Source: an uncultured Gammaproteobacteria bacterium (GTDB taxonomy: Bacteria; Pseudomonadota; Gammaproteobacteria; UBA9214). From it: a stretch of DNA of 64,000 nt. Positions 6,897 to 58,945 of this stretch are shown here, one piece after another. Position numbers and translations under genes: made by a program. The DNA lies in assembly GCA_963748215.1 (NCBI GenBank), contig CAVVHS010000006.1, positions 704,001 to 768,000 on the forward strand, in the 5' to 3' direction. Position 1 is the first letter of the stretch. Each line of letters opens with the position of its first letter. The notes under the pieces were generated by a model. It was not told the origin of the DNA. It searched no databases and saw only the letters and a program-made list of their open reading frames with translations.

Positions 6897-9800
6897 TTAC
6901 CAGCCGCAGGTGGTGCCTGTCCTGGCAATCGATACCTCTTCCCACACTGCCTCGGAAACACGCCCCTCGATGAGATGCCGCTTCCACTCTCTACCACGGT
7001 TGGTATTACCGCAGCTCACGTTGCCTTCGTTGCCGTGGCACGCGCGACAGACGGTTGTGGTACCACCGGTGTAGGGGTTGACCGGGTCGGGTACACCCGA
7101 CACGACACCCGCATTGGCCTCGGCATCGTCCATTGCCAGACGCGACACGCGGTTGATCATGGCGTGGATCTGCCACTCTTCATTGTTGGCCGAGATGGCG
7201 CCTGACAAGTTGCCATGGCAGTTCAGACAGACACTGGCACGCGGATCGGCCTCATCCGTGTAGGTGTGGGCCCAGGACACGGCGGCATCAAAGTCATTGA
7301 TCACCGGTACCGCGGGTCCACCATCGACCGGATCCGTGTAGCTCAGACCATCGACCCAGACTGGCACCTGGTCAGCGTTCACATGGGTGTGGCAGGTGGC
7401 ACATTTCAGCGGCCCATGCGAGCCGTCCTGGTTCAGGCCGGCTGCCTGCGCGTACGACGTGTTATCGATGGTCGGGGTCACGGGATAGAGGCCGTGAATC
7501 GACTCATGACAACCCTGGCAGGTGATGTCCTGGTGGCCACGCGAGTAGCGCATCAGGCTGGCCTTGCGCGGATAGTTGAACGGCGGGAACGCATTCACAT
7601 TGCCGCTCTGCTCCGTGTAAGGCGCCTTGTGGCAATCCGCACAGTGTGGCTCACCCGCGCTCAGCCAGTGATCCCGCCCGTCAGACGCCGTGGTGGCCGT
7701 CGAGGTCGAGAACGGAATGGTGAACGCCAGCGAGTTAACCAGCGTTGCCTGGGCCGCCGTTACGCAATCCGGCGTGGTGCAGAAGTCCATGATGTTGGCG
7801 GTGAAGTCGCCATCTGCATCGAAGTTGCCGCAGATGTTGAACACCGGTCCGCCCTCGGCTGAGCAGTCCACCGGACCGACCTGGCCGGGGGTCGAGCAGG
7901 CCTGTCCCGCCGACGGGATCGCCACCTCGATGGTCGCTACATTACCGTCGAAGGTTGGATCAAGCGGCGCCCCGGTGGCAACCGACACCACGTAGTTGCA
8001 GAGCCCTGGATCGCTCTTCCAGATGAAGTGGGTATCATCGGCCGGACGGGTACCCGCACCACTCAACGGCAGGTCGGGATCGATGGCCGGATCCTTGGGG
8101 TCGACCCAGGACTCGAGCTGCGCCAGGGTGGTACCGAGCTGAGTCGCCAGATCGGCCATGTCCACTGCCGCGCGCGGATTCTCACCCGGTGCACAGTCGT
8201 TGTGGACCAGGCTAATGCAGTTCTCGGCCTTCCACATCTGCTGACCGGCCTGGCTGTGACAGTTGGTGCACCAGATACCGCGCATGTCTTCCGTGCCACC
8301 CGGCTCCTGGGACTGGTTACGGAACACGAAATCGGACAGGTACTGACCCACCGCAGTGAGGTGCTCTGGCGTCTCGGCACCGTCGACATCCTTCATCGGG
8401 TTGGAGTGCACGTCACGACCCACGAAGCAACCACCCTGTGCCAACCGGTTGTCGCCGCTGGCCTGGAAGTTGTTGCCGTCCAGGTCGATCGGATAGCCGT
8501 CCATGACACCGTCGGAACGGTGTGCCGGGTGACAACCCTGACAGCCACCATCACGCCCGGTCGCGTCGTTGAAGACGATGTCACCGCCCTCGCTCTGGCT
8601 GCGATGGTTGTGGTGGAGAGCCTGTGAGAGCGCCGGAATCAGGCCGCCCTCGGCACAGCTGGCTGCCCCACCGCAGTTGGTCGACTTGACCACCGCGATC
8701 ACGTTATCAGCATGGCACTTCTGGCAGATGACGCTGTCGTGCCCGATGCGGGTGTTCTGCGGCAGGTCGCACACTTCATCCCCGATACCGGCACAATCCG
8801 CATGGCTGGCACAGGCCGGACCGGTCGGCGCCTTGTTCACCAGGCAGTTGGCCGGCGAGTTGAAGAAAGGCTCGCTCAGACCACCCAGCTCGGTCACCGG
8901 ATTAAACGGCGATCCGGCCGGAATCGCTGCTGCTGCCGGGTAATTGGCCAGGAACTGGGTGCCATGTTGTGTATCGTGGGTCCCCAGGATACTGATGGCT
9001 GCACCCTTCAGGCGCGCATACCAGTCAGAATCACCTCCTGCCACATCCAGGTCGTAGTAGGCCGCCCAGAAATCGTACTCGAGATTGACCAGCACCTCGT
9101 TCGCCGGGATCACGTTCGGGCTGTTGACATTGACATTGCCGAAGGCATCCGTGGGCGGTGCCGAGTGGCAGCGCTCGCAGTTCGGGATGTCGATGGGCGC
9201 ATCACCGAAGCCCTGCACCGGGTGACCCGAGCCATCGAGTACCACGTTCCCCGCGGTGCAGTTACCCGCAGCGTCGCAGACAGCATCGTGCAACTGCGCC
9301 GACATCTGCACATACGGGCGGATGGAGTCTTCGTCCACCAGACCCGGGTCGGCGAAGAAGCCCAGCGTATCCTCGAATGGCGTCAGCGGCAGGCCCAGGG
9401 CCTCCCAGATACGCGGCGAGGTCAGCATGATGGGCAGGTTCTCCACCAGCTTCATCTGGGTGAATACCACCGTACCGGTGTCCTCGGAGAAGGTCATGAA
9501 GGCGTTGTCGTTGAAGACACCGCCCGAGACCGGTCCCATCGGATGACCGCCCGGGCCGTAATTGGTCGGGTAGTCGACATCCAGGCCGAGGCGCAGCTTG
9601 GCGGATTCCAGGCTGGTGCCGGTGGGATTGCTCCCCTCCGTATCGGCGTAAATGTACAGGTGGTTCCACACGGCATTCTGGTAGTTATCCACCGGTACGC
9701 CGAAGGTATTGCCGATATCGCCGTAGTCACCATTGCCCTGCACCACGTTAATGGCTGCACAGGTCAAGGGGTCAAGCGGGTCGGTACACTCAGAGTTACC

Positions 9801-12722
9801 CAGCACAAAGCTCCCATCCGGGTTGCGTGCGGCGGCATCGGCGCGCGTGTTCCACGACAGCAGGGTGTTGCCCTCGACATCGCTGATCAGCGATGTGGTT
9901 TTCAGGTGCGGCGGCAATGTAGCCTGCAGGGCCGGATTACCGATCTGCGGTTTGCCCTGCCCGTCGTTACGCGACTGGGAGTCGTGCCAGTACTTCACCA
10001 CGTACTTCTTGAAGTTGTTGCCCGTGGCATCGACCGCCGGATCACGCACCACCGTCTCACGACCCAGCACGTCGAGGTTGCCGCCATTGTTGGGATCACC
10101 CTCCAGCATGCGTGGGAAGGCATCGACAAAATCAATATCGCGGTACTGATTGTTCGGTGAGCATGGCCCGCTGAAGCAGGGGTTTTGCGCACCATTCAAC
10201 TCCTCCTTTGGATTGCCGATCGCCGGCTTGGCGATCTGCGACACGATGGAGTTGTAGGCCGGCAGCACGCAGCAGTAGGCGAACTCGAAGCCCGTGCAGT
10301 GCATGCCGAGCTCGTAGTTCATCATGAACTTGAAGTCGGTCTGCTTGGGCAGCACGCGCACATTCACCGTGGCGACCGTGGACAGGTTGGTGCCGTCCGA
10401 GGCCTGGTAGGTAAAGGTGTCGTCCAGGTAGGCCGCACCACCCAGTGGTGCGCCGGCCGGCGGCGTGTAGGTGAACGAACCATCCGCGTTCAGGGTTACG
10501 CTACCCTGGGTACCTGTAGTATTAAGACTGACTGCCGTCAGCGGATCAGACTGCTCGTCGAAGTCGTTATACAACACGCCCGACAGGCGTGTAGCCGGCA
10601 CCGTCAGGGCCTGGTTGCGGACCGTGGTGTAGGAATCACCGCGTGCCGTGGGCGCCTGCTGCGCTGCCACGCAGCCTCCGGGCAGATCGACACAGGAAGG
10701 TCCCGGAGCCTGACCAATTTGTGCCTTGGTAAAGGTGAAATCGGTGGGATCCACGATACCGTTGCCGTTTATGTCCCGATCCGGATTGACCGTCCCTACT
10801 GCGGCCTTGATGGATGTGAAATCAGTCGGATCCACGATGCCGTTGTTGTTAAAGTCCGCATCGCAGACATTACCGTACCCGTCAGCGTTGGTGTCGCGCT
10901 GATCGGCGTTGACCTTCTCGATGCAGTTGTCCTGGTTATCCGGGACGCCATCCTGGTCGAAATCACCGGCTACCACCGGCTGAACCGTGATGGTGACGGT
11001 CGCCACATTGCTGTTGTCGGTGCCATCGTTCGCCACGTAGGTGAAGCTGGCATTACCACTGAAGCCCGCGGCCGGTGTGTAGGTGAACGAACCATTGGCA
11101 GCCAGGTTCAATGTGCCACTGGTCGGGCCTGACTGCAGCAGGGCGGTCAGGGTGTCGCCATCGGCGTCGGTGTCATTGCCCAGGACGCCCGGGGCAGGCA
11201 CGATCAGCTGGGTCTGGAACGCGGTACTGTAGCTGTCATTATTGGCTACCGGGGGCGCGTTAGCCGGTGAACCGACCGTGATGGTGACGGTCGCCGTGTT
11301 GCCGTTGACGGTGCCATCATTCGCCGCGTAGGTGAAGCTGGCATTACCACTGAAGCCCGCGGCCGGTGTGTAGGTGAACGAACCATCGGCAGCCAGGTTC
11401 AAGGTACCGCTGGTCGGGCCTGACTGCAGGATGGCCGTCAGCGGATCGCCGTTGTCGTCGGTGTCATTGCCCAGGACGCCCGGGGCAGGCACGGTCAGCG
11501 GGGTCTGGAAGGCCGTGCTGTAGCTGTCGTTATTGGCGACCGGGGGCACGTTGGGCGGATTGCCGACCGTGATGGTGACGGTTGCCGTATTGCCGTTGAC
11601 GGTGCCATCGTTCGCCGCATAGGTGAAGCTGGCAGTACCGGTGAAACCCGCGGCCGGCGTATAGGTGAACGAGCCGTTGGAATTCAGATTCAGGGTGCCG
11701 CTGGTCACGGCAGACTGCAGGACAGCAGTCAGCGGATCACCGTTGGCGTCCGTGTCATTGCCCAGCACACCCGGGGCGGGAACGGTCAGCGGTGTCTGGA
11801 AGGCCGTGCTGTAGCTGTCGTTATTCGCTACCGGGGGCACGTTGGGCGGATTGCCGACCGTGATGGTGACGGTCGCCGTATTGCCGTTGACGGTGCCATC
11901 GTTGGCCGCGTAGGTAAAGGTCGCATTGCCACTGAAACCGGCGGCCGGTGTATAGGTGAACGAGCCAGAAGCACTCAGATTCAATGTGCCACTGGTCGGG
12001 CCAGACTGCAGCACGGCGGTCAACGTATCACCATTGGCGTCCGTGTCATTGCCCAGAACGCCCGGGGCAGGAACGATCAACTGGGTCTGGAAGGCTGTGC
12101 TGTAGGAGTCAGGATTGGCGACCGGTGGCGTATTGGGAGCCGCCGGGTCCACCGCGCCTGAGCCGGGATAGGTGTTGGTGCCTGACGAGACGCAGTTGTT
12201 GCGGCCCCAGACGGGCACCGCGCCCAAGGTCCAGCCTGGCTGGGTGTTGGCATTGATCTCCTGCAGGTTGGTGAAGCCCCCCGCATCGCCATCGGAGTTC
12301 ACCGCTTCAACGGCAGCAATTCGCGCCGCGATTCCACCCGTGGCGCCGTTGCACGCAGCCAGGGCGAAGCCGTAGGGGTTGATGTTCTGGGTGCTCGACC
12401 CGTGGCACAGCTGGCAACTGGCATTGTTGTCCGATGCCGAGCCGGGATAGATGCCCTGCCAGGTACTTAAATAGCCACTGGTGGCATGCGCGGCCGACGC
12501 GGCCAGCAGCAGGCCCAGCAACAGCAGCGACGGGAGCACGAACCCACATGCTCCGGGAGTTGCTGCTGGTTGTATTGTGATTCGTGATTCCGCGCGCACG
12601 TGCGCCGGCGACAGAGAAGAATGTTGGGAAGGCCTGGCAATCAGTGTGCCGATCCTGCGGAGTGTGCTCCAGATGCGACAGCGGAGCGTTCCATCAAGCC
12701 TGTTCGTTGCGGTTGTTTTCAT
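6897..12722 (-). CDS. Giant secreted decaheme cytochrome c with Ig-like (Big_9/cadherin-like) repeats and an internal TSP3-dockerin-like module
   Basis: Ten CxxCH motifs: CQLCH, CERCH, CQKCH, CQGCH, CTNCH, CADCH, CQGCH, CATCH, CLNCH, CRACH. Also an NYELGMHC...VLPAYN motif and five PPVANxDSY-type repeats. Start moved to ATG 12722 because it has an RBS (GGAGGAG) and a sigma-54 promoter lies inside the longer ORF. Confidence 0.88.
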   Translation of the reverse strand: MKTTATNRLDGTLRCRIWSTLRRIGTLIARPSQHSSLSPAHVRAESRITIQPAATPGACGFVLPSLLLLGLLLAASAAHATSGYLSTWQGIYPGSASDNNASCQLCHGSSTQNINPYGFALAACNGATGGIAARIAAVEAVNSDGDAGGFTNLQEINANTQPGWTLGAVPVWGRNNCVSSGTNTYPGSGAVDPAAPNTPPVANPDSYSTAFQTQLIVPAPGVLGNDTDANGDTLTAVLQSGPTSGTLNLSASGSFTYTPAAGFSGNATFTYAANDGTVNGNTATVTITVGNPPNVPPVANNDSYSTAFQTPLTVPAPGVLGNDTDANGDPLTAVLQSAVTSGTLNLNSNGSFTYTPAAGFTGTASFTYAANDGTVNGNTATVTITVGNPPNVPPVANNDSYSTAFQTPLTVPAPGVLGNDTDDNGDPLTAILQSGPTSGTLNLAADGSFTYTPAAGFSGNASFTYAANDGTVNGNTATVTITVGSPANAPPVANNDSYSTAFQTQLIVPAPGVLGNDTDADGDTLTALLQSGPTSGTLNLAANGSFTYTPAAGFSGNASFTYVANDGTDNSNVATVTITVQPVVAGDFDQDGVPDNQDNCIEKVNADQRDTNADGYGNVCDADFNNNGIVDPTDFTSIKAAVGTVNPDRDINGNGIVDPTDFTFTKAQIGQAPGPSCVDLPGGCVAAQQAPTARGDSYTTVRNQALTVPATRLSGVLYNDFDEQSDPLTAVSLNTTGTQGSVTLNADGSFTYTPPAGAPLGGAAYLDDTFTYQASDGTNLSTVATVNVRVLPKQTDFKFMMNYELGMHCTGFEFAYCCVLPAYNSIVSQIAKPAIGNPKEELNGAQNPCFSGPCSPNNQYRDIDFVDAFPRMLEGDPNNGGNLDVLGRETVVRDPAVDATGNNFKKYVVKYWHDSQSRNDGQGKPQIGNPALQATLPPHLKTTSLISDVEGNTLLSWNTRADAAARNPDGSFVLGNSECTDPLDPLTCAAINVVQGNGDYGDIGNTFGVPVDNYQNAVWNHLYIYADTEGSNPTGTSLESAKLRLGLDVDYPTNYGPGGHPMGPVSGGVFNDNAFMTFSEDTGTVVFTQMKLVENLPIMLTSPRIWEALGLPLTPFEDTLGFFADPGLVDEDSIRPYVQMSAQLHDAVCDAAGNCTAGNVVLDGSGHPVQGFGDAPIDIPNCERCHSAPPTDAFGNVNVNSPNVIPANEVLVNLEYDFWAAYYDLDVAGGDSDWYARLKGAAISILGTHDTQHGTQFLANYPAAAAIPAGSPFNPVTELGGLSEPFFNSPANCLVNKAPTGPACASHADCAGIGDEVCDLPQNTRIGHDSVICQKCHADNVIAVVKSTNCGGAASCAEGGLIPALSQALHHNHRSQSEGGDIVFNDATGRDGGCQGCHPAHRSDGVMDGYPIDLDGNNFQASGDNRLAQGGCFVGRDVHSNPMKDVDGAETPEHLTAVGQYLSDFVFRNQSQEPGGTEDMRGIWCTNCHSQAGQQMWKAENCISLVHNDCAPGENPRAAVDMADLATQLGTTLAQLESWVDPKDPAIDPDLPLSGAGTRPADDTHFIWKSDPGLCNYVVSVATGAPLDPTFDGNVATIEVAIPSAGQACSTPGQVGPVDCSAEGGPVFNICGNFDADGDFTANIMDFCTTPDCVTAAQATLVNSLAFTIPFSTSTATTASDGRDHWLSAGEPHCADCHKAPYTEQSGNVNAFPPFNYPRKASLMRYSRGHQDITCQGCHESIHGLYPVTPTIDNTSYAQAAGLNQDGSHGPLKCATCHTHVNADQVPVWVDGLSYTDPVDGGPAVPVINDFDAAVSWAHTYTDEADPRASVCLNCHGNLSGAISANNEEWQIHAMINRVSRLAMDDAEANAGVVSGVPDPVNPYTGGTTTVCRACHGNEGNVSCGNTNRGREWKRHLIEGRVSEAVWEEVSIARTGTTCGW
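10980..12135 (-). repeat. Four tandem ~97-aa Ig-like (Big_9) coding repeats
   Basis: PPVANxDSYSTAFQTxLxVPAPGVLGNDTDxxGDxLTAxLQS...GSFTYTPAAGF...TVTITV occurs four times with near-identical DNA. Confidence 0.85.
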
Positions 12723-14801: not shown

Positions 14802-17800
14802 TCACGAACTGACGCGCCGGTAACGGCGATACAAACCGCCTGCCGCTACCAATAGAGACAGGGGAAACACCGGGTCGAGTGACGTTGTGGCGGTTGCAAC
14901 CAGCGTACAGCCGCCACCCCCACCCCCGGAACCCGCCGGCTGCACCGCCGCGACTGCCACGGCAATACCCACCGGGTCGGCAATCGTGCCAATGGCAGGG
15001 TCGGTATCGAACACCCCGTCATTGTCGGTCAGTGTCAGAGTGAAACTGCGCTGATTCAAGTCGATCAGGGCGTTGTTCACGGTACGCCAGGTGCCACTGA
15101 CATCCAGCTTGCGGATAACCGTGTTGGCGGGCAGCGCCGCACCCGGCGGCAGCTGCACGGTAACGGTGGCCGTATCCTGACCCACCGGAAGCACGACGCG
15201 GTAGCTGTACAGACCCAGCGGATAATCGTACGCCGTATCACCGGTGGGTAAATCCGATTCGACAAACAGCGGCAGTCCCGTGGCGGGGTTTGCTTCTATC
15301 ACAAGCGTTGCACCCGTGATTTCCGACACCTGAACCACCTCGTTCGCGTACTCGTTCACTCCCATCGCCTGGGCAACCCCGGCCGTGACAAAAAAGCTCA
15401 GCATTGCGGCGTCTGTCGCTGCCGTACCGGGCTCAAGCGCATCGATGATCCCGTCGCCATCCGTATCGGTGGGGTTGGCCGGGTCACCGAGTTCCAGCGC
15501 ATCGGTGATACCGTCGCCGTCGGTATCACCGCTCACCACGTTGGGATCCAGCGCGTTGGCAAGAGCCTGTGCATCGCTGATGCCATCACCATTGCTGTCG
15601 CTGTCGTCATCGTTGATGGTCACCGTGGCCGTGCTCACCGCACCCAGGCTGGCGCCGCCGGTAACATTCGACAGACTCAGCGTGAAGCTCTCGCTGGACT
15701 CCGGCACGCTGTCATTCAGGATCGGCACGCTGAACGACTGACTGCTTACCCCGTTGGCAAAGTCCAGTGTCCCGGTGCTGGTCGTGTAGTCGCTGCCGGC
15801 CAGCGCCGTGCCGTTGCCGGTTGCATAGCCAACGCTGACTGCACCCGCGCTGCCGCCCGTGCGCGTCACCGTCACCAGCACGCTCGCACCGTTCTCCGCC
15901 ACACTGTAAGTACCGGTACTGAACTGCACACTCCCCACCGGTAACGGGTCGTCATCGTTGATGGTCACCGTGGCCGTGGTCACGGCACCCAGGCTGGCGC
16001 CGCCGGTAACATTCGACAGACCGAGCGTGAAGCTCTCGCTCGGCTCCGGCACGCTGTCATTCAGGATCGGTACGCTGAACGTCTGGCTGGCGGTCACGCC
16101 GTCGGCAAAGGTCAGCGTCCCGGACCGCGTACTGTAATCACTGCCGGCCAGCGCCGTGCCGTTGCCGGTTGCATAGCCAACGCTGACTGCACCCGCGCTG
16201 CCGCCCGTGCGCGTCACCGTCACCAGCACGCTCGCACCGTTCTCCGCCACACTGTAAGTACCGGTACTGAACTGCACACTCCCCGCCGGCAGCGGGTCGT
16301 CATCGTTGATGGTCACCGTGGCCGTGCTCACGGCACCCAGGCTGGCGCCAGCGGTGGCATTCGACAAACTCAGCGTAAAGCTCTCGCTGGACTCCGGCAC
16401 GCTGTTATTCAGGATCGGTACGCTGAACGACTGGCTGATCACGCCATCGGTGAAAAGCAGCCGCCCGCCCACCGCGCCATAGTCACTGCCCGCGGTGGCC
16501 GTGCCGTCGCTACTTGCATAGTCGACGGTGATGGCACCCGTGCTGCCGCCGGTGCGGAGCACCGTCACCAGCAGAATCGCGCCATTCTCCGCCACGCTGT
16601 AACCGGCGGCGCTGAACTGCACACTGCCCGGCCCCGGTACAGCATCCCCGACACGGACGGGATAAAAGTCATGCAGCGTCTGACTGCGGCCTGTCAGCGT
16701 ATTCTGGCTGGTCACCGCCAGGCGCAGCGTGTAGCTACCCGGCGCGACACTGGTGCTGTCCCAATCGCCGAGCAGCATATTCTCCGCACCGCCCGTGCCG
16801 CTGAGGCCGGTCGGCTGCCAGCTGCCCTGCCGGTCACAGACCAGGAAATCCTCGCCCGGACAGACGTCGATGCGATAGCCGGTCGATACCCGGGCCGGAT
16901 CCCGGCCGTTCACGGTGCTGCCCGACAGCGCCACCACCCCGCTCAGGGTGTCCGTGGCATTGACCGGATTGAGCCGTACCGCCACCGGCGAGTACAGCGG
17001 ATCGCCATACAGAATGCCGCTGTTGTTGGCGGCGGCGAACCATACCGCATCCCCCAGCGGCAGGCCGCGCGTGAAATACACCAGCGGCGCCATGCCGCTC
17101 AGGCAGAACGCACAGCCAGCCGACTGGTGATGGCTCACGCTGCCCCAGAAGGCCACGCCGCCCAGCCGGTCCAGAAACGTCGCCGCATGATCGCCGGCTG
17201 CCACCTGGCGGTGACCCTCGCTGAAGGAGCCGTTGAGCGCCAGCTCCGCGCCCGCGCCCACCTGCTGCACGCTGACCGCGTCGATACCCAGCGCCCCGGC
17301 AAACACCCCGGTGGTTTCGATGCGGAACTTGATGCCGTCGTAACTGGCGGCGGCATGCAGCGCCGGGTCGAGCGGGAACGCAACCTCGACCGGTGTCCAG
17401 CCGGTATTGCCCGGGGCCAGCGTGGCGAGCTCGCGGGTGCCGTAGTCGACCTGGGCGCCGCCCGCCTCGCGCACGAAGAAGCGCACCTGCAGGGTGACGG
17501 GTGTGGCGAGATCGGCCGCCTGGTAGTGCAGGGCGATCCGGTAGGTCTGGGGGTTGCCGGTGTCCAGGGTCTGCGCGGCCAGCGGGAGACGCTGGGCCAG
17601 CACTACCCGGCGCTGGTCGGCACAGGGCAGGCCTGGCGGCGCCGAGAAGTCACTGGCCGGGAAACAGCGCGGCGCGGCCACCTGGTCGGTGTTGCGGAAC
17701 CACAGGCTGAAGCTGTCATCGAAGCCGGTGTCAGTACGCACCTCGGGCAAGGCCAGCTGGTTGACATCACCGTGACCGCCATCGTTCCAGCTGCTGTTGC

Positions 17801-19019
17801 CGGTGCTCTGGAACCAGCCCGTCGGCCACACCGCCAGGTACGACACCGGCCAGGACTGGTGGTTGTAGCCCATGAACCCGTCGGCCATGCCGACACAGTC
17901 CGTGTTGAGTTCCCCGAACACATCCGTGGATGCCGCCTGGCAGGCCGCGGGATCGGCCGCATCGCGGCACTCGGTGACCGTGCACTGGTCGTTCTTGCGC
18001 CAGTTGAGCAGGGCATCGAAACTGTGAACCGCCGCCTGCCCGTCCAGCCAGCCCTGATACAGCAGCGCATTCACCGCCTGCGGCTGGCGGCTCGCGGCAT
18101 TGCCCGGGGCCGGGTAGCTGGCGCTGGTGACCGGGTCGCTGTCCTCGTTGAGTTGCACCGTGCAGTGCGCCGGCGTCTTGCCTTCCGGCAACAGCCCGGA
18201 AAAATTCAGGTAGTCGACACACTCCGGACGGGCCTCGTCAAACAGCCCGAGCTGATAGGGCCAGCCGGTGATCCCGGTGGGTGGGTAAATCAGTCGCCCG
18301 GTACTGTTATCCACCCAGCGATTGAAGCGCGTGGAGCCGAACAGGCGGCCGGACAGGCCGCCGCGTTCCGCCGCCAGGGTCCGGTCCAGCAGCGCCCGGG
18401 CGGAGCCCAGCGTGAGCCCGTCGAGTCGCCCGATGATCAGTTCCCGGTCGGTGGCCGGCAATACGGTGCGCATGCCGCGGCCATCGCCAAACGCCACCTC
18501 GCGCTCGTTAAACGTGAGCCGCGTGTCCTCGGTAAAGTAATTGAGCAGCCAGTACTTGAGGTAGTTGTCCACCGAGGTCGGCGCGGTCGCATCGAACAGG
18601 GTGGAGCCGTCTACCACCATCCGGGTCGGCACCCCGCGCGTGGTGACCAGGTAGCGGATCCTGCTGTGAGCGCGCAACTGCTCCACGGCCGCCGGGCAAT
18701 AATACGGCGGCTCGCCATCCACACACACCGCCGGTGTCAGGGTCGGGTCGTCCAGCGTGTTGCGCTGCATGAAGTCGATGAGCTGATCGCGCAGGCGGCG
18801 AAAGTCGTCCCAGCCGATGAAGTAACCGGCAGGCACGCGCACATGCACGATGTTGGCGGGATCGATGTCACGCTGCTGGGCGTAATAGGTCCCCAGCTGG
18901 GGCGAATCCACCGAGTTGTCGTTGACAATGATCAGTACGTCATCGCGTGCTGCCTCGACCATCGACACCGTACACAACAACAGGCACGCAAGAGCTACTA
19001 GATGCATTCTGGTGATCAT
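14802..19019 (-). CDS. TIGR03790-like surface protein with three Calx-beta domains, a probable choice-of-anchor U domain and a JDVT-CTERM/GlyGly-CTERM sorting signal
   Basis: N-terminus DVLIIVNDNSVDSPQLGTYYAQQRDI...LVTTRGVP...GRLDG...LYGDPLY; three VQFSxxxYSVAENG...VTINDDD repeats; C-terminus GSGGGGGGCTL...LDPVFPLSLLVAAGGLYRRYRR. Confidence 0.8.
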   Translation of the reverse strand: MITRMHLVALACLLLCTVSMVEAARDDVLIIVNDNSVDSPQLGTYYAQQRDIDPANIVHVRVPAGYFIGWDDFRRLRDQLIDFMQRNTLDDPTLTPAVCVDGEPPYYCPAAVEQLRAHSRIRYLVTTRGVPTRMVVDGSTLFDATAPTSVDNYLKYWLLNYFTEDTRLTFNEREVAFGDGRGMRTVLPATDRELIIGRLDGLTLGSARALLDRTLAAERGGLSGRLFGSTRFNRWVDNSTGRLIYPPTGITGWPYQLGLFDEARPECVDYLNFSGLLPEGKTPAHCTVQLNEDSDPVTSASYPAPGNAASRQPQAVNALLYQGWLDGQAAVHSFDALLNWRKNDQCTVTECRDAADPAACQAASTDVFGELNTDCVGMADGFMGYNHQSWPVSYLAVWPTGWFQSTGNSSWNDGGHGDVNQLALPEVRTDTGFDDSFSLWFRNTDQVAAPRCFPASDFSAPPGLPCADQRRVVLAQRLPLAAQTLDTGNPQTYRIALHYQAADLATPVTLQVRFFVREAGGAQVDYGTRELATLAPGNTGWTPVEVAFPLDPALHAAASYDGIKFRIETTGVFAGALGIDAVSVQQVGAGAELALNGSFSEGHRQVAAGDHAATFLDRLGGVAFWGSVSHHQSAGCAFCLSGMAPLVYFTRGLPLGDAVWFAAANNSGILYGDPLYSPVAVRLNPVNATDTLSGVVALSGSTVNGRDPARVSTGYRIDVCPGEDFLVCDRQGSWQPTGLSGTGGAENMLLGDWDSTSVAPGSYTLRLAVTSQNTLTGRSQTLHDFYPVRVGDAVPGPGSVQFSAAGYSVAENGAILLVTVLRTGGSTGAITVDYASSDGTATAGSDYGAVGGRLLFTDGVISQSFSVPILNNSVPESSESFTLSLSNATAGASLGAVSTATVTINDDDPLPAGSVQFSTGTYSVAENGASVLVTVTRTGGSAGAVSVGYATGNGTALAGSDYSTRSGTLTFADGVTASQTFSVPILNDSVPEPSESFTLGLSNVTGGASLGAVTTATVTINDDDPLPVGSVQFSTGTYSVAENGASVLVTVTRTGGSAGAVSVGYATGNGTALAGSDYTTSTGTLDFANGVSSQSFSVPILNDSVPESSESFTLSLSNVTGGASLGAVSTATVTINDDDSDSNGDGISDAQALANALDPNVVSGDTDGDGITDALELGDPANPTDTDGDGIIDALEPGTAATDAAMLSFFVTAGVAQAMGVNEYANEVVQVSEITGATLVIEANPATGLPLFVESDLPTGDTAYDYPLGLYSYRVVLPVGQDTATVTVQLPPGAALPANTVIRKLDVSGTWRTVNNALIDLNQRSFTLTLTDNDGVFDTDPAIGTIADPVGIAVAVAAVQPAGSGGGGGGCTLVATATTSLDPVFPLSLLVAAGGLYRRYRRVSS

Positions 19020-43538: not shown

Positions 43539-46500
43539 ATGAAGACATACAAGGTATACGAATATGACGGTTTCAGTGTCACAAATCGTGGTACGGGACC
43601 AGTCAAACACAAACGCTGGCCGTCTGCCCTAATGACGGCGATCAGCACCCTGGCCATCGCTGGCATACTGAGCTTGACCGGCACGAATATGGCCGCTGCC
43701 GCGGTCGACGTGCCGTCGAGCCTGCCGGGCAGCCCGCTGACTGGTTTAGCTGGTCAGACAGGGCCGATATTGTCCTTCGCCCAGAAGATGCTGCGTTTCG
43801 AGGAGTTCGGCGTGCATCCGTTGCCGGCACCCGGCACAACAGCACAAAAGAACTTTCCGTTGCCGGTGGCCACCGCCACACAGCCCGACCCTTGTCGCTC
43901 CAGGCCAGATGCCCTGAACATGGATGCCTTCCTTGATGCGCCGATATGGCCTGATCCGACTGCGCAGGCCAACCTCAGTGAGAATCCGTGGCACACGCTG
44001 ATTGCCCCCTGTGTGGGACTCGATCCAGTGACGTTCACCGGTGTCATGGAAGGGCGTCCGCCGGGCATTAGCTTCGCCCACCAGCGCTGGGACGAGTTCA
44101 AGCCCGTGATATATTTCGAAACCGCCCAAGGCGGGGCGCGGCCAGGTACCGGCAGACTTGATGACGAGCAGAGCCACAACTACTCGGTAGGTGAGTTTGC
44201 GCCGGGGGGGCTGTACCACGACACCACGGGCGGTGGCACGAACGGCACGACCGCCGGTATCGATATCAGATTCCACCCGAACATGCCGATCCAGGAGCCG
44301 CTGACCCTGTGGACCTTCGGTGACGGTACTCTGCCGCCGAAGCTGTTGCGGACCCGTTACGCCCAGCCTATCCTGATGCGCCACTATAACGCGCTGCCGA
44401 TCGATGCCACTGCCAACAACAACTTCGGTGAGCACACCATCACCACCCACGAGCACAACGGCCACAACCCGGGCGAGGTCGACGGCTTTGCCGGCGCCTA
44501 TTTCTTCCCCGGCCAGTTCTACGACTACCGCTGGCCGATGACGCTGGCCGGCTATGACAGCATCAATACCGATGCGTCGGATCCGCGTGCCGCCACCCCG
44601 TGCTCGCCGGGCGAGGTGCTGATGATTTCCAATCCCATCACCCACGTGCCCGAGCCCAAGACCTGCGATCCCACCACCCTCACCGTCAGAATCCCGGGTG
44701 ACTGGCGCGAGACCATGAGCACCCACTGGTTCCACGATCACATGATCGACCGCACCTCGGAGAACGTCTACAAGGGCAACGCGGCAATGATGAACTATTA
44801 CAGTGGTATCGACCGCGGCAAGGAAGGCTTCCTGTGCGATTACGATGACACCCCCGCCCAGGACAACATCAACCTGTGCTTCCCCAGCGGCACCGCGCTG
44901 GACTGGGGTAACCGCGACTATGACATCCAGCTGCTGGTTGCCGCCAAGGCCTGGGCCCCGGTGACCGGTCAGCTGGACATGGCGGGTGGCCTGAATGAGG
45001 ACGGCTTTCTGGGCGACCGGATGACGGTTAACTGGCTGTACGAACCGTACCTGGATGTACGTGCCCGCAAATACCGCTTCCGCATCCTCAACGGCGCCGT
45101 GGCGCGCTTCTTCAAGATCGCCCTCGTGGAGCAGGTGGCCGGAAACGGCGGTGAGTTCCCCGGCCCGGCCGGTTCGAACGTGTCCTATAACCAGGTTTCG
45201 TTCCACATGATCGCCAACGACGGCAACATCCTGGAGCACGCGGTGCCGTTCCCCAATGCGTCCTCGCCTGAGGGCTTGCCGATCCAGTCCATTGCCGAGC
45301 GCTTTGACATCATCGTCGACTTCAGCCAGTTCGCAGTGGGTACCAGGCTGTACCTGGTCAACACCCTGGCGCTTCGATGACGGCCGGGGTCCCAAGGAGG
45401 TCGTCCCGCTGGCTGACATCCTCAGTGGAGCCTATGCGCCCGTGCTTGATCCCCTCCCCTGTATCGACAGCTGCTGGTCGCATGACCCGGTCGTAAAACG
45501 CTTCATGGAGTTCCGGGTGCAGGCGCCTGTCGGTCCCGATCTGAGCATGAATCCGGCCGACTACGAGGTGGGTGGGAAAACGATGATCCCGCTGGTGCAG
45601 TTCACCCAGGCAGAGCTCGACTCGGCCATCCACCGCACCTTCCATTTCGGTCGTGGCGGCTTCCCCGGTCTCGCGGCAACCGACGGTCGTCCCACACCAT
45701 GGGGTATTGTCACCGACGATGAAATCGCGGCCACCACGCCCGATGGCTGTGTCGCTGACCCCGGTGAGATCCTGTGCACGCGCAATGCGGACATCAACCG
45801 TGTCTCGGCCGCCCCGGAGACCATCGGGGGTGGCGTGGAGATCTGGCATATCACCGGTGGCGGTGGCTGGGGTCATCCGGTGCATGTCCACTTCGAGGAG
45901 GGCCAGTACCTGGCGCGTGATGGTGCGCTTCCGCCCCCGTGGGAGGTGGGTGCGCGCAAGGACATGTACCGTATTTCGGGTCTGAATGACCCGAGCAGTA
46001 GCCAGACGATCGATGTCGTGATCCGCTTCCGCGAGTTCGCCGGTACCTTTGTGGAGCACTGTCACAACACCACGCACGAGGACAAGGCCATGCTGTTGCG
46101 CTGGGACAACGAACTGCCGGGGCAGACGGTGCGTATCCCGACACCGCTTCCGACCTGGGAAGGCGTCGGCTACATCAGCGCGACCAATCCGGACCCGCAT
46201 ACCGGGGAAACCGCGGTTCTCGAGCTGGCGACCATCAAGACCGGCAATGTTGCGGTGGCGACGCTCTCCGACCTGGATGGCGACCTGGTCCTCGATACGG
46301 TAGACAACTGTGTGCTGGCTGCCAACCCGGGTCAGGCGGATGGCGATGGTGATGGCGTGGGCGATGCCTGCGACAACTGCACCCTTGTCGCCAACGCCAA
46401 CCAGCGGGATACCGACGCGGATGGTTTCGGCAATGTCTGCGATGGCGACTTCAACAACAACGGTCGCCTCGGGAACGGGATCGTGGACCCGACGGATTTC

Positions 46501-46689
46501 ACCCTGCTGAAATCACGCATTGGTGTACCGCCGATCCAGAGTCCTTTGCCTCCAGTCGGTAGCGGGATACTTCAACCCGTCGCGCCGAGTCAGGACCTGA
46601 ACGGTAATGGCATTGTGGATCCGACTGATTTCACCCTGCTGAAATCGCTCATTGGTTCACAACCGGGCCCCTCGGCGTTAGTCCCGTAG
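43539..46689 (+). CDS. mcoA: Multicopper oxidase, McoA/MofA-like candidate Mn(II) oxidase, with TSP3-dockerin-like tail; single frameshift at ~45372
   Basis: Cu motifs THEHNGH and WFHDH lie in ORF 43515-45380; HPVHVH and HCHNTTHEDKAM lie in ORF 45256-46689. Removing one base in CTGGCGCTTCGATGAC joins them as NTLAFDDGRGPK. RBS GGAGG precedes ATG 43539. Confidence 0.75.
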
Positions 46690-46954
46690 GCAAGGGACGT
46701 GCGCAGACCGGCGCTGGTGCAGGTCGATGGCTTGACCTGCACCAGCACGACGGGGCGAAATCATGGGCTGTCAGTGGTAATGGTGCCACTGACAGCACGA
46801 GTGGCACCTGCAAAGAACCGCAGGGGGATGATTGCTCACAGGACCCATACGTCAATGGCAAACCACTCGACATAAATCACAAGATCGTCTTGATATAATG
46901 AATCCCGAGGGTCTGAACTGATCTGTTACCGGTAAGTTTAATATGAGGCTGCTT

Positions 46955-48052
46955 ATGAGTTGTATCCGTTTCACCGCAAACCCTGGGGGCGCTATCGCCG
47001 CCGCTCTCCTGCTCTTTTCCACCCTTTCACTGTTGGCTGCCAATCCAGCCGGCGCGGCGCCGCAGCAGCAGTTTCCCAATGTCCCCCTGACAAACCAGGA
47101 CGGCGAGACGCTGCACTTCTACGATGACGTTATCAAGGGCAAGGTGGTGTCCATTAATTTCATGTTCACGAGTTGTGGAGACTCCTGCCCGCTGGAGACA
47201 GCCAAGCTGCGCAAGGTTCAGCAGCAGCTCGGCGAGCATGCCGGGAAAGACGTCTACATGTATTCCATTACCGTCGACCCCGACCGCGACACGCCGGCGG
47301 CACTCAAGGCGTACATGCAAAAATTCAACATCGGCCCCGGCTGGCAGTTCCTGACGGGAAAGAAGGCAGACATCGATCAGATACGTAAAAGGCTGGGCAT
47401 GTACAGTGAAGAAGCGGATGAGCTCAGCGATCACGCAATCAACTTCGTGCTGGGCAATGAGGCGACCGGACAGTGGTTGAGGCGTACCCCCTTTGATCTG
47501 CCCGAAACACTGGTTTCCGTACTGCTTGGCCGCCTGCAACAGTACCGGCTGGCTTCGTCAGCGGCTGCAGCAAGACCGAGCTATGCGCTGAGCCGCCCCA
47601 TGCCGGCTGCACGCCCGGGTGAGGATCTGTTCAATACGCGCTGCACGGCCTGCCATACCATCGGCCAGGGCGATAAACTGGGCCCGGATCTGCTGGGTGT
47701 TGTCAGTAAACGGGACCGTCAATGGCTGATCCGCTGGCTGCAGGAACCCGATGTGATGCTGAAGGAAAAAGATCCCCTGGCAACAGCGCTCTACAACCAG
47801 TATGGCAAGGTGCCGATGCCGAATGTGAAGCTGACTGACAAGAATGCGCTTGATCTGATCGAGTACATGCAGGCGGAGACCCTGCGTGTGAACGCACTAT
47901 CCGAGGATACGCCCGCGCAAGCAGACAGCCTGGAAAGCATCGACACGACAGAACCGGCAGTCCGCACAGACGGGAGTCCGCCTCCGGGCAACGAGATACC
48001 GCAGGAACAGGCGCGGGCGGATTCCGCACCGGTAAAGGAGATTAGCAATTAA
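46955..48052 (+). CDS. SCO1/SenC copper chaperone fused to cytochrome c, copy 1
   Basis: FTSCGDSCP (CxxxC), SITVDPDRD, conserved His in SDHA, then CTACH...GPDL...MPN. Confidence 0.9.
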   Translation: MSCIRFTANPGGAIAAALLLFSTLSLLAANPAGAAPQQQFPNVPLTNQDGETLHFYDDVIKGKVVSINFMFTSCGDSCPLETAKLRKVQQQLGEHAGKDVYMYSITVDPDRDTPAALKAYMQKFNIGPGWQFLTGKKADIDQIRKRLGMYSEEADELSDHAINFVLGNEATGQWLRRTPFDLPETLVSVLLGRLQQYRLASSAAAARPSYALSRPMPAARPGEDLFNTRCTACHTIGQGDKLGPDLLGVVSKRDRQWLIRWLQEPDVMLKEKDPLATALYNQYGKVPMPNVKLTDKNALDLIEYMQAETLRVNALSEDTPAQADSLESIDTTEPAVRTDGSPPPGNEIPQEQARADSAPVKEISN

Positions 48053-48082
48053 AGAGGCTCACTATAGCGGGAGGATAATAAT

Positions 48083-48817
48083 ATGAAAAACCGCTCAAAC
48101 AACGCGAGATTAACCACGTCCGTTTTCGCCATGCTTTGCCTGTTACTGCCCGGCGCGGCCCGGGCAATCAGCGTCGGCCAGATCGATAACTTCGAAGACG
48201 GCACGCTTCAGGGCTGGCGGATGGGCATAACCACGGTCACGAAAAGCCATATGGCAAACATCGCCACTGGCGGGCCCGCCGGGACCGGCGACAGCTTCCT
48301 TCAGGTTATCGCGGACGGAACGGCCGTTCAGGGTGGAAGGATGACCTTCTTCAACAAGACCCAGTGGACGGGTAATTACACCGCAGCGGGGATCACTGCC
48401 ATCACCATGGACCTGAAGAATATCAGCTCCAGTGAAGCCCTGAATCTGCGACTGGCGATCGATGGCGGTACCTATACCACCAGCATTGATTTTATCGGGG
48501 GCAAATTTTCCACCGCGGCCAGCATCAGCCTGGACAGCGGCAGTGACTGGACGCGGGTCGTGTTCTCATTGCTGCCCGGCGATCTGATCCCCGTCTGTAG
48601 CCCTGGTCCTATCTGCAGCCTGGGCAACGATGTCCAGGCCACACTGGCCAACGTGCGGGAATTGCGGCTACTGAACAGTACAAACCCCGACTGGAACGGG
48701 CTCCCGGTTGCCGGAAAACTGGGTATCGACAACATCCAGGCGGTACCGCTACCGCCGGCTCTTGCACTGTTCGGTTCGGGACTCGTTGTACTCCTGACAG
48801 GACGGCGCAAACAATAA
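48083..48817 (+). CDS. PEP-CTERM (VPLPA-type) surface protein, family C copy 1
   Basis: Signal peptide; C-terminus VPLPPALALFGSGLVVLLTGRRK. Confidence 0.85.
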   Translation: MKNRSNNARLTTSVFAMLCLLLPGAARAISVGQIDNFEDGTLQGWRMGITTVTKSHMANIATGGPAGTGDSFLQVIADGTAVQGGRMTFFNKTQWTGNYTAAGITAITMDLKNISSSEALNLRLAIDGGTYTTSIDFIGGKFSTAASISLDSGSDWTRVVFSLLPGDLIPVCSPGPICSLGNDVQATLANVRELRLLNSTNPDWNGLPVAGKLGIDNIQAVPLPPALALFGSGLVVLLTGRRKQ

Positions 48818-56778: not shown

Positions 56779-58945
56779 ATGCTCAGCATACTGATGCTAG
56801 CGGCCTACAGTGGCTAGACATAGGCTGCGATGCAGAACAACCTCGGCGGTGAAGTCGAACGCATTATTGTCGACAACCCGCTCGATCGCTGGTCGCGCGG
56901 CACCATCGTGGTATCCGGCCAGAACATCATCGTTCCACGTAACTTTGTGATTGATCTGCCTGCCAACCGCCAGACCATTCAGGAACTGTTCACCAACAGG
57001 CCGTCGGCCTGCCCGCCCGGCGAGACCGGGCTGGCCAAGGCCGACAGCTGCAACCACAGCTTTACCGGCGCCACAGCGACTATCCTGGCCAACAAGACCA
57101 ATAATGGTGATGTCATCGCCGGTGAAATCATGCTCGAAAAGGCCACTGAGCTGGTCAGCGGTATTGTGTCGTTCATCAATTACGATGACGGCTACTTCCG
57201 TGTCGACGGCATCGTCGGCGATGACACAACTGGCGCAATGGTGCGCGTGAATGACCCGGAAGGGCGTTTCACCCACCAGCAGGGCGCGGGCTGTCTCGGC
57301 AGCGGGCCGAACTGCAGTGCCGACGTGCGCTACGGCGTGGACCCGGATAACTATACATTCACGGCTGCCACCGGCTACCCGATGTGTATCCCGAGCACGG
57401 TGGCGCGCGGTCCGTTTGACTTCGACACCAACCGCAACGGCGTGATTGATGCTGGAGAATCTGGCCTCACGGCACAGGCCGCAGCAAACGGCACGGGCGA
57501 TATACTGTGTCCACAGACCAACCGCGGCGTCGACCCTGTCGGCGATTCGCGGCTGTTCGCGCCGATCCAGGTGGGTGACCACGTCAACGCCGAGGGTAAC
57601 TTCGAATCCATCGACGGCGTGACCTTCCTGTCGTCGCATACCGTGGGCGTCAGCGTGGGTCTGACCACGGATGACACCGCCTTCCAGCCCGACTACATGA
57701 TCTTCGACGAAGTCGGCTGGGACGTGCCGGGTTTCCAGAACCAGCGCGTGCGCGACCTGTTCATCTCATTCGGCACCCTGGGCACAACCAGCATTGACAT
57801 CTTCGGGCTTTATTACGACCCGGCGAACAACGCCGTCGAAGAACTGGTCATCGCGACCACAGCCGGTTGTGAAATAGCGGCCGGTGCGGGAACCTGTAGC
57901 AACGTGGCCCTGGTCGGCAACACTGCGGTGTTCAAGATCGTGCACGACGTGGACTTTCTCGCCGGCACGGATCCCAGACGTTCTCCCTGTGCGCATCTGC
58001 AGGCGGCCTACGCCAACGGCGGTATTCCACAGGCCGACCACTCAATCGATCTCGCGGATCCCAAGGGCCGTTGCCGACACCATTTGCCGGGACCGGTGTC
58101 ACGGCCCAGGAGTTCGAAGTGCTGAGCCCGCCGACGCGCGACATCATCGGCCGCAGCCGGCACAAGCATGCACTCGATCCGAGCGTGGTCACACTGGATT
58201 TCCACGCTACACCTGCGCAGAACGGTGAGTACCTGAACCCTACCGGCATCGGTCACCCGGAATTCGTCGAGATTAACCTGGCAGCGTTGCAGACGCCGTT
58301 AATTTTACCGGCGAACCGTGGAACATGGACCGGCGACTGGGACCGGGTGGCGGTTGTGACGGTGAGCCGGAATGCGAGACCGATATTTCTGTCGCTACCG
58401 GGATTCCCATAGGCGATCCGAGCATGAACCTGGACCCGTTCCCGTTCTCCGACCTGGATCCGGGAACCCAGAACAATGCGGCTGCCGCTCCTACTCCGGT
58501 AGTATCGCGGCTGGGTCATACCACGCAGCGTGGACGCACCCTGTCTCACTGGCCGCTCTTAGGTCAGGAAATGGCCTGGCCACCGGCCGATCCAGCGGCG
58601 CAGGGCATTACAGCGACCCAGCACGTCAACCTCCAGTGTGCACTGCTCAGCGGCATCGATTCGGACGGGGATACCATCGACGATGCCATCGACAACTGCA
58701 CCCTGGTTGCCAATCCGAACCAGCGTGATACCAACGGCGATGGGTTCGGCAACATGTGCGATGCGGATTTCAACAACAACGGTTTGGTTGATCCGAGTGA
58801 CTTCTCGTTAATCAAGTCGTTGTTTGGCTCCACCACATCACCGGACCAGGATCTGAACGGCAACGGCATCGTGGATCCAAGCGATTTCTCCAAAGAGAAA
58901 TCACTCTTTGCAACCCAACCGGGCCCCTCGGCACTAGCCCCGTAG
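56779..58945 (+). pseudogene. Family A copy 3 with dockerin-like tail, disrupted
   Basis: In-frame TAG stops at 56815 and 56821 in the signal peptide, plus frameshifts at ~58074 and ~58303. The pieces are collinear with copy 2. Confidence 0.8.

Follow-up and report, generated by a model that had tools for sequence, protein, structure and literature searches.

In an uncultured gammaproteobacterium of the UBA9214 lineage, a 64,000-nucleotide stretch of DNA (GenBank assembly GCA_963748215.1, contig CAVVHS010000006.1, positions 704,001 to 768,000; hereafter the window, numbered from its first letter) holds a cluster of genes for secreted redox enzymes and related proteins, seven of which share one small module. 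This module is about 70 residues long and resembles the dockerins of clostridial cellulosomes; it is C-terminal in six open reading frames (ORFs) and internal in one, a decaheme cytochrome. The same cluster encodes a type II secretion system (T2SS) and a protein of 186 amino acids (aa) in which a single cohesin domain is joined to a sorting signal of the PEP-CTERM kind. The module, the cohesin, and the use to which the cell may put the two are the subject of this report.

The analysis covered the 35 long ORFs in the six-frame list of the window, all of which were searched with Pfam and 24 of which were searched with NCBIfam. A motif scan for QRD[TS] followed by two copies of DP[TS]DF matched exactly 7 of the 35, and these belong to six unrelated families: the cytochrome, a subtilase, a di-heme peroxidase, a multicopper oxidase, and two families, called A (two tagged copies) and B (one), that match no Pfam or NCBIfam family and whose Atlas neighbors are hypothetical proteins (Table 1). 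The same seven genes had been picked out in a sequence-only reading of this DNA, and its coordinates and gene list are correct apart from three points. The McoA-like oxidase does have a dockerin tail, but a frameshift near 45365-45378, read from the sequence, splits the gene into two overlapping ORFs (43515-45380 and 45256-46689). The third copy of family A also has its dockerin but is broken into two ORFs by at least two frameshifts (58080-58100 and 58300-58320). Lastly, the locus had been ended at 58945, but the functional unit continues to a second SCO1-cytochrome c fusion, a second PEP-CTERM protein, and a gene for a putative manganese-oxidizing enzyme of the MnxG type. The two frameshifted genes may be pseudogenes, reflecting the decay of redundant paralogues, or may result from indel errors of long-read assembly. 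In the related locus L001, described below, the relatives of the oxidase and the cytochrome are likewise fragmented.

The T2SS had been placed amid the tagged genes, and it does lie between the cohesin gene and the tagged genes downstream. Specific Pfam or NCBIfam models matched the E, F, G, H, K, M, and D components above cut-off, while I and J were assigned by their N_methyl prepilin motif and gene position only. The L-like gene has a PilN match above cut-off, and the C-like gene is weak (T2SSC 20.4 vs 27). The core from GspC to GspM together with the secretin GspD, by which a T2SS is recognized, is present, and no prepilin peptidase was found in the window by the Pfam and NCBIfam scans. Signal peptides are visible in both tail-less copies (A1 and B1), in A2 and B2, in the cohesin protein, in the SCO1 fusions, and in the PEP-CTERM proteins.

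Table 1. Coordinates of the genes and domains discussed (positions of the window)
Feature	Position	Strand	Content or basis
Cohesin anchor, 186 aa	19693..20253	-	signal peptide + single cohesin (aa ~24-158) + VPLPA/PEP-CTERM (aa ~160-186)
Decaheme cytochrome, 2034 aa	6897-13001	-	five Big_9/cadherin-like repeats, TSP3 + dockerin, ~1260-aa part with 10 CxxCH
Internal dockerin of the cytochrome	10683..10901	-	aa ~701-769; scan motif aa 701-755
Subtilase	21025..23934	-	Calx-beta x3 + S8 + TSP3 + C-terminal dockerin (module 21028-21249)
Di-heme CCP/MauG/MbnH-like peroxidase	37076..39949	+	2 CxxCH, TSP3 repeats, dockerin (module 39728-39946)
Family B1	40100-41512	+	no tail
Family B2	41533-43398	+	TSP3 + dockerin (module 43177-43395)
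Multicopper oxidase	43515..46689	+	Cu-oxidase_2, weak CueO/PhsA; dockerin (module 46402-46686)
Family A1	52324-54246	+	no tail
Family A2	54231-56519	+	dockerin (module 56298-56516)
Family A3	56830-58125 + 58325-58945	+	frameshifted; dockerin (module 58721-58942)
T2SS as a whole	24296..35831	mixed	Pfam, NCBIfam
gspE, F, G, H, I, J, K	24296-30570	+	Pfam, NCBIfam
gspC-like, gspM, gspL-like	30616-32830	-	Pfam, NCBIfam
gspD	33585-35831	+	Pfam, NCBIfam
MnxG-type Mn-oxidizing multicopper oxidase	61322..64000	+	NCBIfam NF041487; N-terminal part, cut by window end
SCO1/SenC-cytochrome c fusion + PEP-CTERM protein	46943..48817	+	Pfam, NCBIfam; pair repeated at 59087-60982
FKBP-type (coiled-coil) + PPIC-type peptidyl-prolyl isomerases	2466..6703	-	Pfam, NCBIfam
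TIGR03790-family + Calx-beta + choice-of-anchor U protein	14802..19019	-	JDVT-CTERM end; Pfam, NCBIfam

The dockerin module and the cohesin anchor

By profile and fold, each copy of the module consists of at least one calcium-binding thrombospondin type 3 (TSP3) repeat followed by a two-repeat dockerin. The seven copies are 67-100% identical in pairs, far beyond chance, and Pfam TSP_3 plus Dockerin_1 are found on 7 of 7. The gathering score of Dockerin_1 (22.9) is exceeded in three (24.5, 23.4, and 23.0), of which the copy of B2 scores highest (24.5 bits). Both dockerin repeats hold the canonical 12-residue calcium loop, D-x-N-x-N-G-x-x-D-P-[TS]-D (D1, N3, N5, G6, D9, D12), and in each the loop leads into a short helix, F-[TS]-x-x-K, as read from the sequence. 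In the multicopper oxidase, a 22-residue insert separates the two repeats. When a hidden Markov model (HMM) of the seven modules was run against all six-frame ORFs of the window, the same seven were matched (E 3e-35 to 1.5e-42), a result that is circular for its source ORFs and informative only on the absence of further copies; no eighth copy was found among these ORFs.

The dockerin assignment is carried by comparison with solved structures. A profile of 36 modules (alignment A3, made of 6 window copies, 8 copies from other loci, and 22 short database proteins) was compared with the PDB, and its dockerin part matched the double dockerin 8x39 of Clostridium thermocellum at 1e-10, 2y3n_B at 2e-8, 2vn6_B at 4e-6, and about fifteen further dockerins, with E-values from 1e-10 to 1e-3 overall and the calmodulins behind at about 1e-2. 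The TSP3 part matches COMP and thrombospondin at 4e-31. An AlphaFold2 (AF2) model of the module has a predicted local distance difference test (pLDDT) score of 77.8 and two helices (25-34 and 52-60), and in Foldseek its ranks 1-31 are all dockerin entries. The best of these is 2y3n_B, with a template modeling (TM) score of 0.75 and a root-mean-square deviation of 1.4 A; the small size of the domain keeps the Foldseek E-values weak (0.02 or worse). On these profile and predicted-fold matches, the seven tails are dockerins preceded by TSP3 repeats, which is what the sequence-only reading had taken them for.

The presence of the module on seven genes from six unrelated families suggests that it acts as a portable tag, and traces of its movement can be seen at the DNA level. 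For example, the tails of B2 and A2 (43132-43414 and 56253-56535) are 97% identical in DNA over 283 nucleotides (nt), while the gene bodies are unrelated; the identity starts sharply at the DNC codons and ends about 25 nt past the stop. This points to a recent exchange, in which the module was transferred or the tails underwent gene conversion. Family A has close relatives (60-84% identity) in two forms, tail-less with about 640-670 aa or tailed (TSP_3/Dockerin) with about 745-810 aa, and more distant relatives have FN3 or Big_9/cadherin tails in the place of the dockerin. In databases the module is found in 4618 representative clusters, 910 of them at E<=1e-10. In a Pfam census that scanned 74 of the 150 best relatives and inspected 25 of 32 families, its cargo included Big_9, FG-GAP, S8, RHS, PD40, and purple acid phosphatase domains, among others.

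The proposed partner is the anchor protein, whose gene lies immediately downstream of the subtilase gene on the same strand, across a 771-bp gap. Pfam Cohesin (PF00963) reaches 23.7 bits on it (cut-off 24.1, E 5.9e-5). A profile of the anchor family (60 sequences) gave 22 matches in the PDB, all 22 of them cohesins, the best at 3e-6, and the alignments to 1g1k and 2vn5 are near full-length. The AF2 model (pLDDT 90.4, 12 strands) contains the nine-stranded beta-sandwich, or jelly roll, of the cohesin fold. Among the 37 Foldseek matches listed for it in the PDB, 36 are cohesins, and one, at rank 47, is a CLIPPER adhesin domain. The best match is 4ums (E 1.8e-9), TM scores by target are 0.69-0.78 for type I cohesins, and the non-cellulosomal cohesin 2xdh of Archaeoglobus fulgidus appears at rank 24, all at sequence identities of 9-19% to solved cohesins. 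By the profile of its family and by predicted fold, the 186-aa protein is a true cohesin, in agreement with the earlier assignment.

The C-terminus of the anchor is a VPVPAAVWLFGSGLLGLVGVARRKAA-type tail that scores 26.8 with the NCBIfam model VPLPA-CTERM (TIGR03370; cut-off 25.35) and 18.6 with Pfam PEP-CTERM, under the cut-off of 20.7. It has the motif, the hydrophobic helix, and the basic cluster by which exosortase substrates are recognized, and residues P162, P164, A165, W168, and L169 are invariant in 60 homologues. The exosortase-type signal seen earlier is thus, more specifically, the VPLPA variant of PEP-CTERM. Homologues of the anchor give at least 3619 matches, some of them probably to the sorting signal alone, and PF00963 is precomputed on 8 of the 120 homologues listed.

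What goes too far is the description of the system as "cellulosome-like." A cellulosome has a scaffoldin with several cohesins, and none was found in the window or, on weak evidence, among longer relatives: no clear multi-cohesin protein was seen among 80 matches in longer proteins, most of which are matches to the sorting signal. Since there is one cohesin per anchor, a single cohesin gene in the window, and no clear scaffoldin, the arrangement would be a monovalent tether rather than a scaffolded complex. Carbohydrate-active enzymes (CAZymes) are absent as well, as had been noted: no glycoside hydrolase or carbohydrate-binding module (CBM) family was matched on the 35 ORFs.

Cohesin and dockerin genes in other loci

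If the cohesin and the dockerins form a pair, their genes should be found together elsewhere. A set of 78 loci had been found with the sorting-signal peptide as the only pattern, so that they in effect sample VPLPA-CTERM genes, and these were re-screened with HMMs of the cohesin and the dockerin made for this work (dockerin E<=1e-3). Two of them, L001 and L002, form one contig of a metagenome-assembled genome (MAG) of another uncultured gammaproteobacterium. Here the order gspL-K-J-I-H-G-F-E, gspD is followed directly by a cohesin gene, and about 10 kb past it come a small dockerin protein, oxidase fragments, and a subtilase with a dockerin (63% identity to that of the window). Then, after a gap of 557 bp in L001, there is a second cohesin (61%), so the order of subtilase and cohesin is that of the window, and this is followed by an FKBP (56%), a TIGR03790-family protein (74%), and a cytochrome (50% over aa 675-1065) with a dockerin at the same internal position. 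Orthologues are 33-74% identical to those of the window overall. The T2SS, the cohesin, and the dockerin-tagged subtilase and cytochrome with their neighbors are therefore syntenic in a second genome.

In L008, a cohesin gene is followed, about 240 bp on, by a gene with a dockerin tail. The product of this gene (8718-11444 of the locus) is an orthologue of the protein at 14802-19019 of the window, with 62% identity over aa 18-788, and it ends in a dockerin where the window protein ends in a JDVT-CTERM signal. A dockerin can therefore substitute for a known surface-anchoring signal. In a fourth case, L034 from a Desulfobacula MAG, a dockerin-tailed gene is followed, 21 bp on, by a divergent cohesin-like PEP-CTERM gene, for which hhalign gives 98.4% over 143 columns, a value driven in part by the sorting signal. 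Other candidates in the Desulfobacterales loci were rejected. The DUF4465-PEP-CTERM protein of L034 has a tblastn match to the cohesin, and so does that of L007; for the former, hhalign aligns only the sorting signal. The ORF 3' of the L007 dockerin gene was also discarded as a cohesin. These DUF4465 proteins (L007 2954-3778 and L034 898-1728), each beside a dockerin-tailed protein, carry a VPVPAAVWLFG-type signal, and this variant of the sorting signal is therefore common to different phyla.

In numbers, dockerin modules were found in 2 of the 7 loci with a cohesin-domain match and in 3 of the 71 without one (Fisher one-sided p 0.06). If L034 is counted as cohesin-positive, the figures become 3 of 8 and 2 of 70 (p 0.007). 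These co-occurrence statistics are suggestive: they favor the pairing of cohesin and dockerin, though not decisively. Co-folding of the cohesin (aa 24-158, 60-row alignment) with the tail shared by B2 and A2 (36-row alignment) and two calcium ions gave 0.26 and 0.21 against a mark of 0.32; it was run without controls and weighs neither way. On the fold assignments and the gene neighborhoods, this cohesin probably binds these dockerins.

The tail could be explained without any such pairing. It might be a calcium-binding module that stabilizes the enzymes or binds a matrix such as extracellular polymeric substance (EPS), lipopolysaccharide (LPS), or mineral, in which case the nearness of the cohesin would be meaningless or the true partners would be encoded elsewhere. 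TSP3 repeats are generic calcium-binding linkers, as the COMP and thrombospondin match illustrates, the dockerin loci L060 and L007 show no cohesin in the available DNA, and many orphan dockerins with unknown partners are mentioned in the literature (PMC9012536, section 32; PMC5244752, in the parts consulted). However, cohesin and dockerin genes adjoin in four loci (the window, L001, L008, and L034), both repeats of the module retain, by fold match, the helix through which dockerins contact the cohesin in solved complexes, and in L008 the dockerin takes the place of JDVT-CTERM. This explanation is therefore considered unlikely.

A second possibility is that the T2SS uses the tail for targeting or quality control, with the cohesin, membrane-anchored and facing the periplasm before exosortase cleavage, acting as an adaptor that collects substrates. 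All seven tagged genes do flank one T2SS, and in L002 the cohesin gene is directly 3' of gspD. C-terminal sorting domains on T2SS substrates are also known, for example the GlyGly-CTERM of VesB (PMC6219818 and PMC13393428, as far as the relevant parts of these papers go). Against this, the tail-less A1 and B1 sit with their signal peptides in the same operons as tailed copies, so the tail is not required to define a substrate, and the module occurs in the 4618 representative clusters on highly varied proteins. In addition, known cohesin-dockerin pairs act outside the cell, and we know of no T2SS with a linear tag. Such a role in secretion appears quite improbable.

The pairing of cohesin and dockerin as a surface tether must itself be weighed against several observations. 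Dockerin_1 is below cut-off in 4 of the 7 modules (17.6-22.0), and the anchor is 0.4 bit under the Pfam Cohesin cut-off. In the window, a single cohesin gene stands against seven genes with dockerins, frameshifts interrupt two of these seven (the multicopper oxidase and A3), and no exosortase was found in the 64 kb by Pfam or NCBIfam; to our knowledge, the route by which PEP-CTERM proteins reach the surface and are retained there is not established. Among the other loci, the first Fisher test does not reach significance at 0.05; the second depends on the post hoc reclassification of L034, a step considered only where a dockerin had been seen beforehand, and L001 and L002 were counted separately though they are one contig. 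Neither L007 nor L060 (2 of 5 outside dockerin loci) has a cohesin within the available DNA, and no dockerin was found in the cohesin-domain loci L004, L005, and L026 (short contigs of 2-4 kb) or in L003 (12.4 kb). Finally, no Cu-oxidase or cytochrome domain appears in the 25 families inspected (of 32) for the 74 relatives of the module that were scanned out of the best 150, which means that the tag is general and not specific for redox enzymes. Judged from these domain compositions, its metal-redox use is particular to this lineage.

Probable manganese oxidation and the proposed tether

The cargo had been read as metal-redox machinery, and this is supported by the genes at its center, those of the MnxG-type oxidase and a second multicopper oxidase. 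The former scores 1035.6 bits with NF041487 over model positions 1-733 of 1894 and, as the window ends within the gene, does not reach the cut-off of 3100. With these two oxidases are found two SCO1-cytochrome c fusions, which are probable copper chaperones, and two prolyl isomerases, which possibly serve as folding helpers in a MofB-like role. Similar neighborhoods have been described, at least in the parts of the sources consulted. In Pseudomonas putida GB-1, the operons of mnxG and mcoA include SCO1 genes, and the oxidases are exported by a T2SS dedicated to them (PMC13689576). Oxidases of the MofA/OmpB type are found alongside a prolyl isomerase (MofB), a cytochrome c (MofC), and an SCO1 chaperone, and export by an atypical T2SS is reported for OmpB of Geobacter (PMC5566968, section 13, the latter citing Mehta 2006). 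By analogy of gene content, the locus is a match to published Mn-oxidase gene neighborhoods.

The substrate could nevertheless be something other than manganese. With a MofA/OmpB-type oxidase and a multiheme cytochrome, the locus might be a general module for extracellular electron transfer or for the oxidation or reduction of iron, tethered in the same way. The decaheme cytochrome has weak MtrC/MtrF-like matches in Pfam, there is a second multiheme protein with PKD domains at 1-2070, and the cited section of PMC5566968 places OmpB/MofA-type clusters with a peptidyl-prolyl isomerase, cytochrome c, and SCO1 in iron oxidizers and Geobacter. This alternative is rather doubtful given the 1035.6 bits of the MnxG equivalog over the part of the gene present, and it concerns the substrate only and is compatible with the tether mechanism. 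The protein at 1-2070 (minus strand) is itself worth noting. It is a lipoprotein-like PKD/choice-of-anchor D protein that runs off the window start, has 3 CxxCH in what can be seen of it, and gives weak matches of the MtrC/MtrF type. It is a second candidate for an outer-surface multiheme protein; the visible part has no dockerin.

Taken together, the locus is best read as one for the oxidation of manganese (or another metal) in which the cohesin and the dockerins most likely serve as a non-covalent surface tether for secreted enzymes, a reading that we hold with fair but not full confidence. The enzymes would enter the periplasm via Sec-type signal peptides, as their N-termini suggest, and would be loaded there with copper and heme, helped by the SCO1-cytochrome c fusions and the prolyl isomerases in the manner of the mofABC clusters and the mnxG and mcoA operons. 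Once folded, they would be exported by the T2SS of the locus, by analogy to the dedicated T2SS of P. putida GB-1. The anchor would be delivered to the cell exterior or the EPS layer by way of its VPLPA/PEP-CTERM signal and an exosortase encoded elsewhere. Outside the cell, the calcium-binding dockerin tail would then dock on the single cohesin of the 186-aa protein. In this way the multicopper oxidase, the di-heme peroxidase, the decaheme cytochrome, the subtilase, and families A and B would be kept at the surface, the site of Mn-oxide deposition, with one enzyme per anchor, which is to say on a tether and not in a scaffolded "-some."

Some other features of the window can be described briefly. 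The pair of an SCO1-cytochrome c fusion and a PEP-CTERM protein is duplicated (repeat families D15 and D16), and in this two-gene cassette each of the PEP-CTERM paralogues (48083-48817 and 60215-60982) is directly 3' of the fusion; the cassettes lie beside the oxidase genes. The paralogues match no Pfam or NCBIfam family, and the one at 48083 has no sequence relative in the PDB. They might represent another type of surface anchor. A relative of theirs is found just upstream of the L008 cohesin, and a degraded third copy lies at about 50455-51147, across several frames, inside a 3.5-kb stretch of low GC content (48817-52324; 0.53) that has no long intact ORF. A1, B1, and the heme part of the cytochrome have no meaningful sequence relative in the PDB. 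An intergenic repeat of about 75-95 nt occurs in three copies (14650-14744, 49443-49537, and 49859-49953) with 82-100% identity. Each copy holds a GGCCGAATGAATTCGG-like palindrome, 2 of the 3 have an inverted partner nearby, and two copies lie inside the low-GC stretch. The repeat may act in regulation or be a small mobile element; Rfam yielded no family for it or for any other part of the window. Sub-threshold NCBIfam matches to MtsC, an Omp28-related selenoprotein, a sodium/calcium exchanger, and mycosin were rejected, as they reflect shared TSP3, Calx-beta, or S8 domains.

Significance and comparison with known systems

A wider proposal can be put forward more tentatively, at somewhat less than even confidence. 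Diderm bacteria may have a widespread and undescribed form of surface display in which small, exosortase-sorted proteins with a single cohesin serve as universal sockets and matching TSP3-dockerin tails serve as plugs on enzymes exported by the T2SS, here recruited to assemble the whole extracellular Mn-oxidizing apparatus on the cell surface or EPS. In environmental Proteobacteria, the single-cohesin family counts more than 3600 clusters at 90% identity, some of them probably matches to the sorting signal. If the proposal is true, the apparatus at the surface or in the EPS would comprise an MnxG-associated oxidase, a peroxidase, a decaheme cytochrome, and a maturation protease, and this would for the first time explain in molecular terms the retention of Mn oxidases at the site of mineral formation. 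Sec export and a dedicated T2SS are covered in the review PMC13689576, which does not, in the parts consulted, explain the surface retention of Mn(II) oxidases, and the locus provides a concrete and testable mechanism from two well-understood domains. Cohesin-dockerin biology would be extended from gram-positive cellulose degraders to diderm Proteobacteria, its anchors from S-layer homology (SLH) domains and sortases to PEP-CTERM and exosortases, and its cargo from CAZymes to copper and heme redox enzymes. Both the cohesin family and the dockerin subtype are large, with hardly any of their members annotated, so that proof of the pairing would allow thousands of proteins from the environment to be annotated. 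Such a pair might also be used as orthogonal, calcium-dependent parts for surface display in gram-negative hosts.

The closest structural parallel is the type I cohesin-dockerin anchoring of the clostridia, for example OlpA and OlpC of C. thermocellum or the complex 2vn5 of C. cellulolyticum, where the same two folds are found. As in clostridial cellulosomes, a duplicated calcium loop-helix dockerin sits at the C-terminus of enzymes from unrelated families, and the cohesin is on a cell-surface anchoring protein, although the surface location is here only predicted. The monovalent architecture resembles that of the single-cohesin anchors OlpA and OlpC. Near-symmetrical repeats are a trait of dockerins with a dual binding mode, and the two repeats of the window dockerins are near-symmetrical, with DP[TS]DF in both. 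There are also differences. The window comes from a diderm gammaproteobacterium, its anchor has a VPLPA/PEP-CTERM signal instead of SLH domains or a sortase, and export is probably by a T2SS. No multi-cohesin scaffoldin was found, the cargo consists of redox enzymes, a protease, and families of unknown function in place of CAZymes, TSP3 repeats precede the dockerin, and the cohesin is only 9-19% identical to solved ones.

Cohesins and dockerins outside cellulosomes are not new. According to the sections consulted, they occur across all domains of life (PMC9012536 and PMC5244752, citing Peer 2009). Anaerobic methanotrophic (ANME) archaea have many cohesin and dockerin proteins, for which attachment of functional proteins to the cell exterior has been proposed (PMC9012536, section 32), and a role in the adhesion of multiheme cytochromes has been speculated on (PMC5244752, section 16). 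These systems, like that of A. fulgidus, place cohesins and dockerins on proteins unrelated to cellulose, and the cohesin 2xdh of the latter is among the fold matches of the window. The common cargo named for ANME in that section is ABC-transporter binding proteins and S-layer proteins, whereas in the window Mn oxidases lie at the center of a single conserved cluster that also encodes the tagged proteins, the anchor, and the secretion system.

In gene content, the locus resembles the Mn-oxidation genes of P. putida GB-1 (the mnxG and mcoA operons and the xcm T2SS), with which it shares an MnxG-type and a second multicopper oxidase adjoining SCO1/SenC genes. With GB-1 and the mofABC-OmpB clusters of Leptothrix and Geobacter taken together, as far as the cited parts describe them, it shares a MofB-like prolyl isomerase, a MofC-like cytochrome c, a dedicated or atypical T2SS, and an activity that is, here presumably, outside the cell. 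The words "anchor" and "dockerin" appear 0 times in the main text of PMC13689576, and no anchoring mechanism is described there for GB-1; in the window, at least one multicopper oxidase and five other families have dockerins, and a cohesin anchor is encoded alongside. Genes matching Geobacter with dockerin, cupredoxin, and laccase domains are reported in PMC6199725, the relevant part of which mentions no cohesin partner.

That no description of such a system was known was part of the sequence-only reading, and this holds for the specific combination but not for its ingredients, each of which is already published. In the open-access literature searched, and judged for the wider searches by the titles and abstracts listed, neither a cohesin, a dockerin, and a PEP-CTERM anchor in combination nor a description of cohesin-dockerin pairs with T2SS-exported Mn oxidases was found. 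A functional parallel is offered by VesB and the GlyGly-CTERM/rhombosortase system of Vibrio cholerae, in which enzymes exported by a T2SS, including a serine protease, are kept at the surface by a C-terminal module (PMC6219818 and PMC13393428, in the parts consulted). There, the tag is a transmembrane sorting signal on the cargo itself, processed by rhombosortase. In the window, a separate anchor carries the sorting signal, and the attachment of the cargo would be non-covalent, through the cohesin and the dockerin. Judged from gene and domain content, each ingredient of the locus is known, and their combination in one gene cluster appears to be new to the literature searched.

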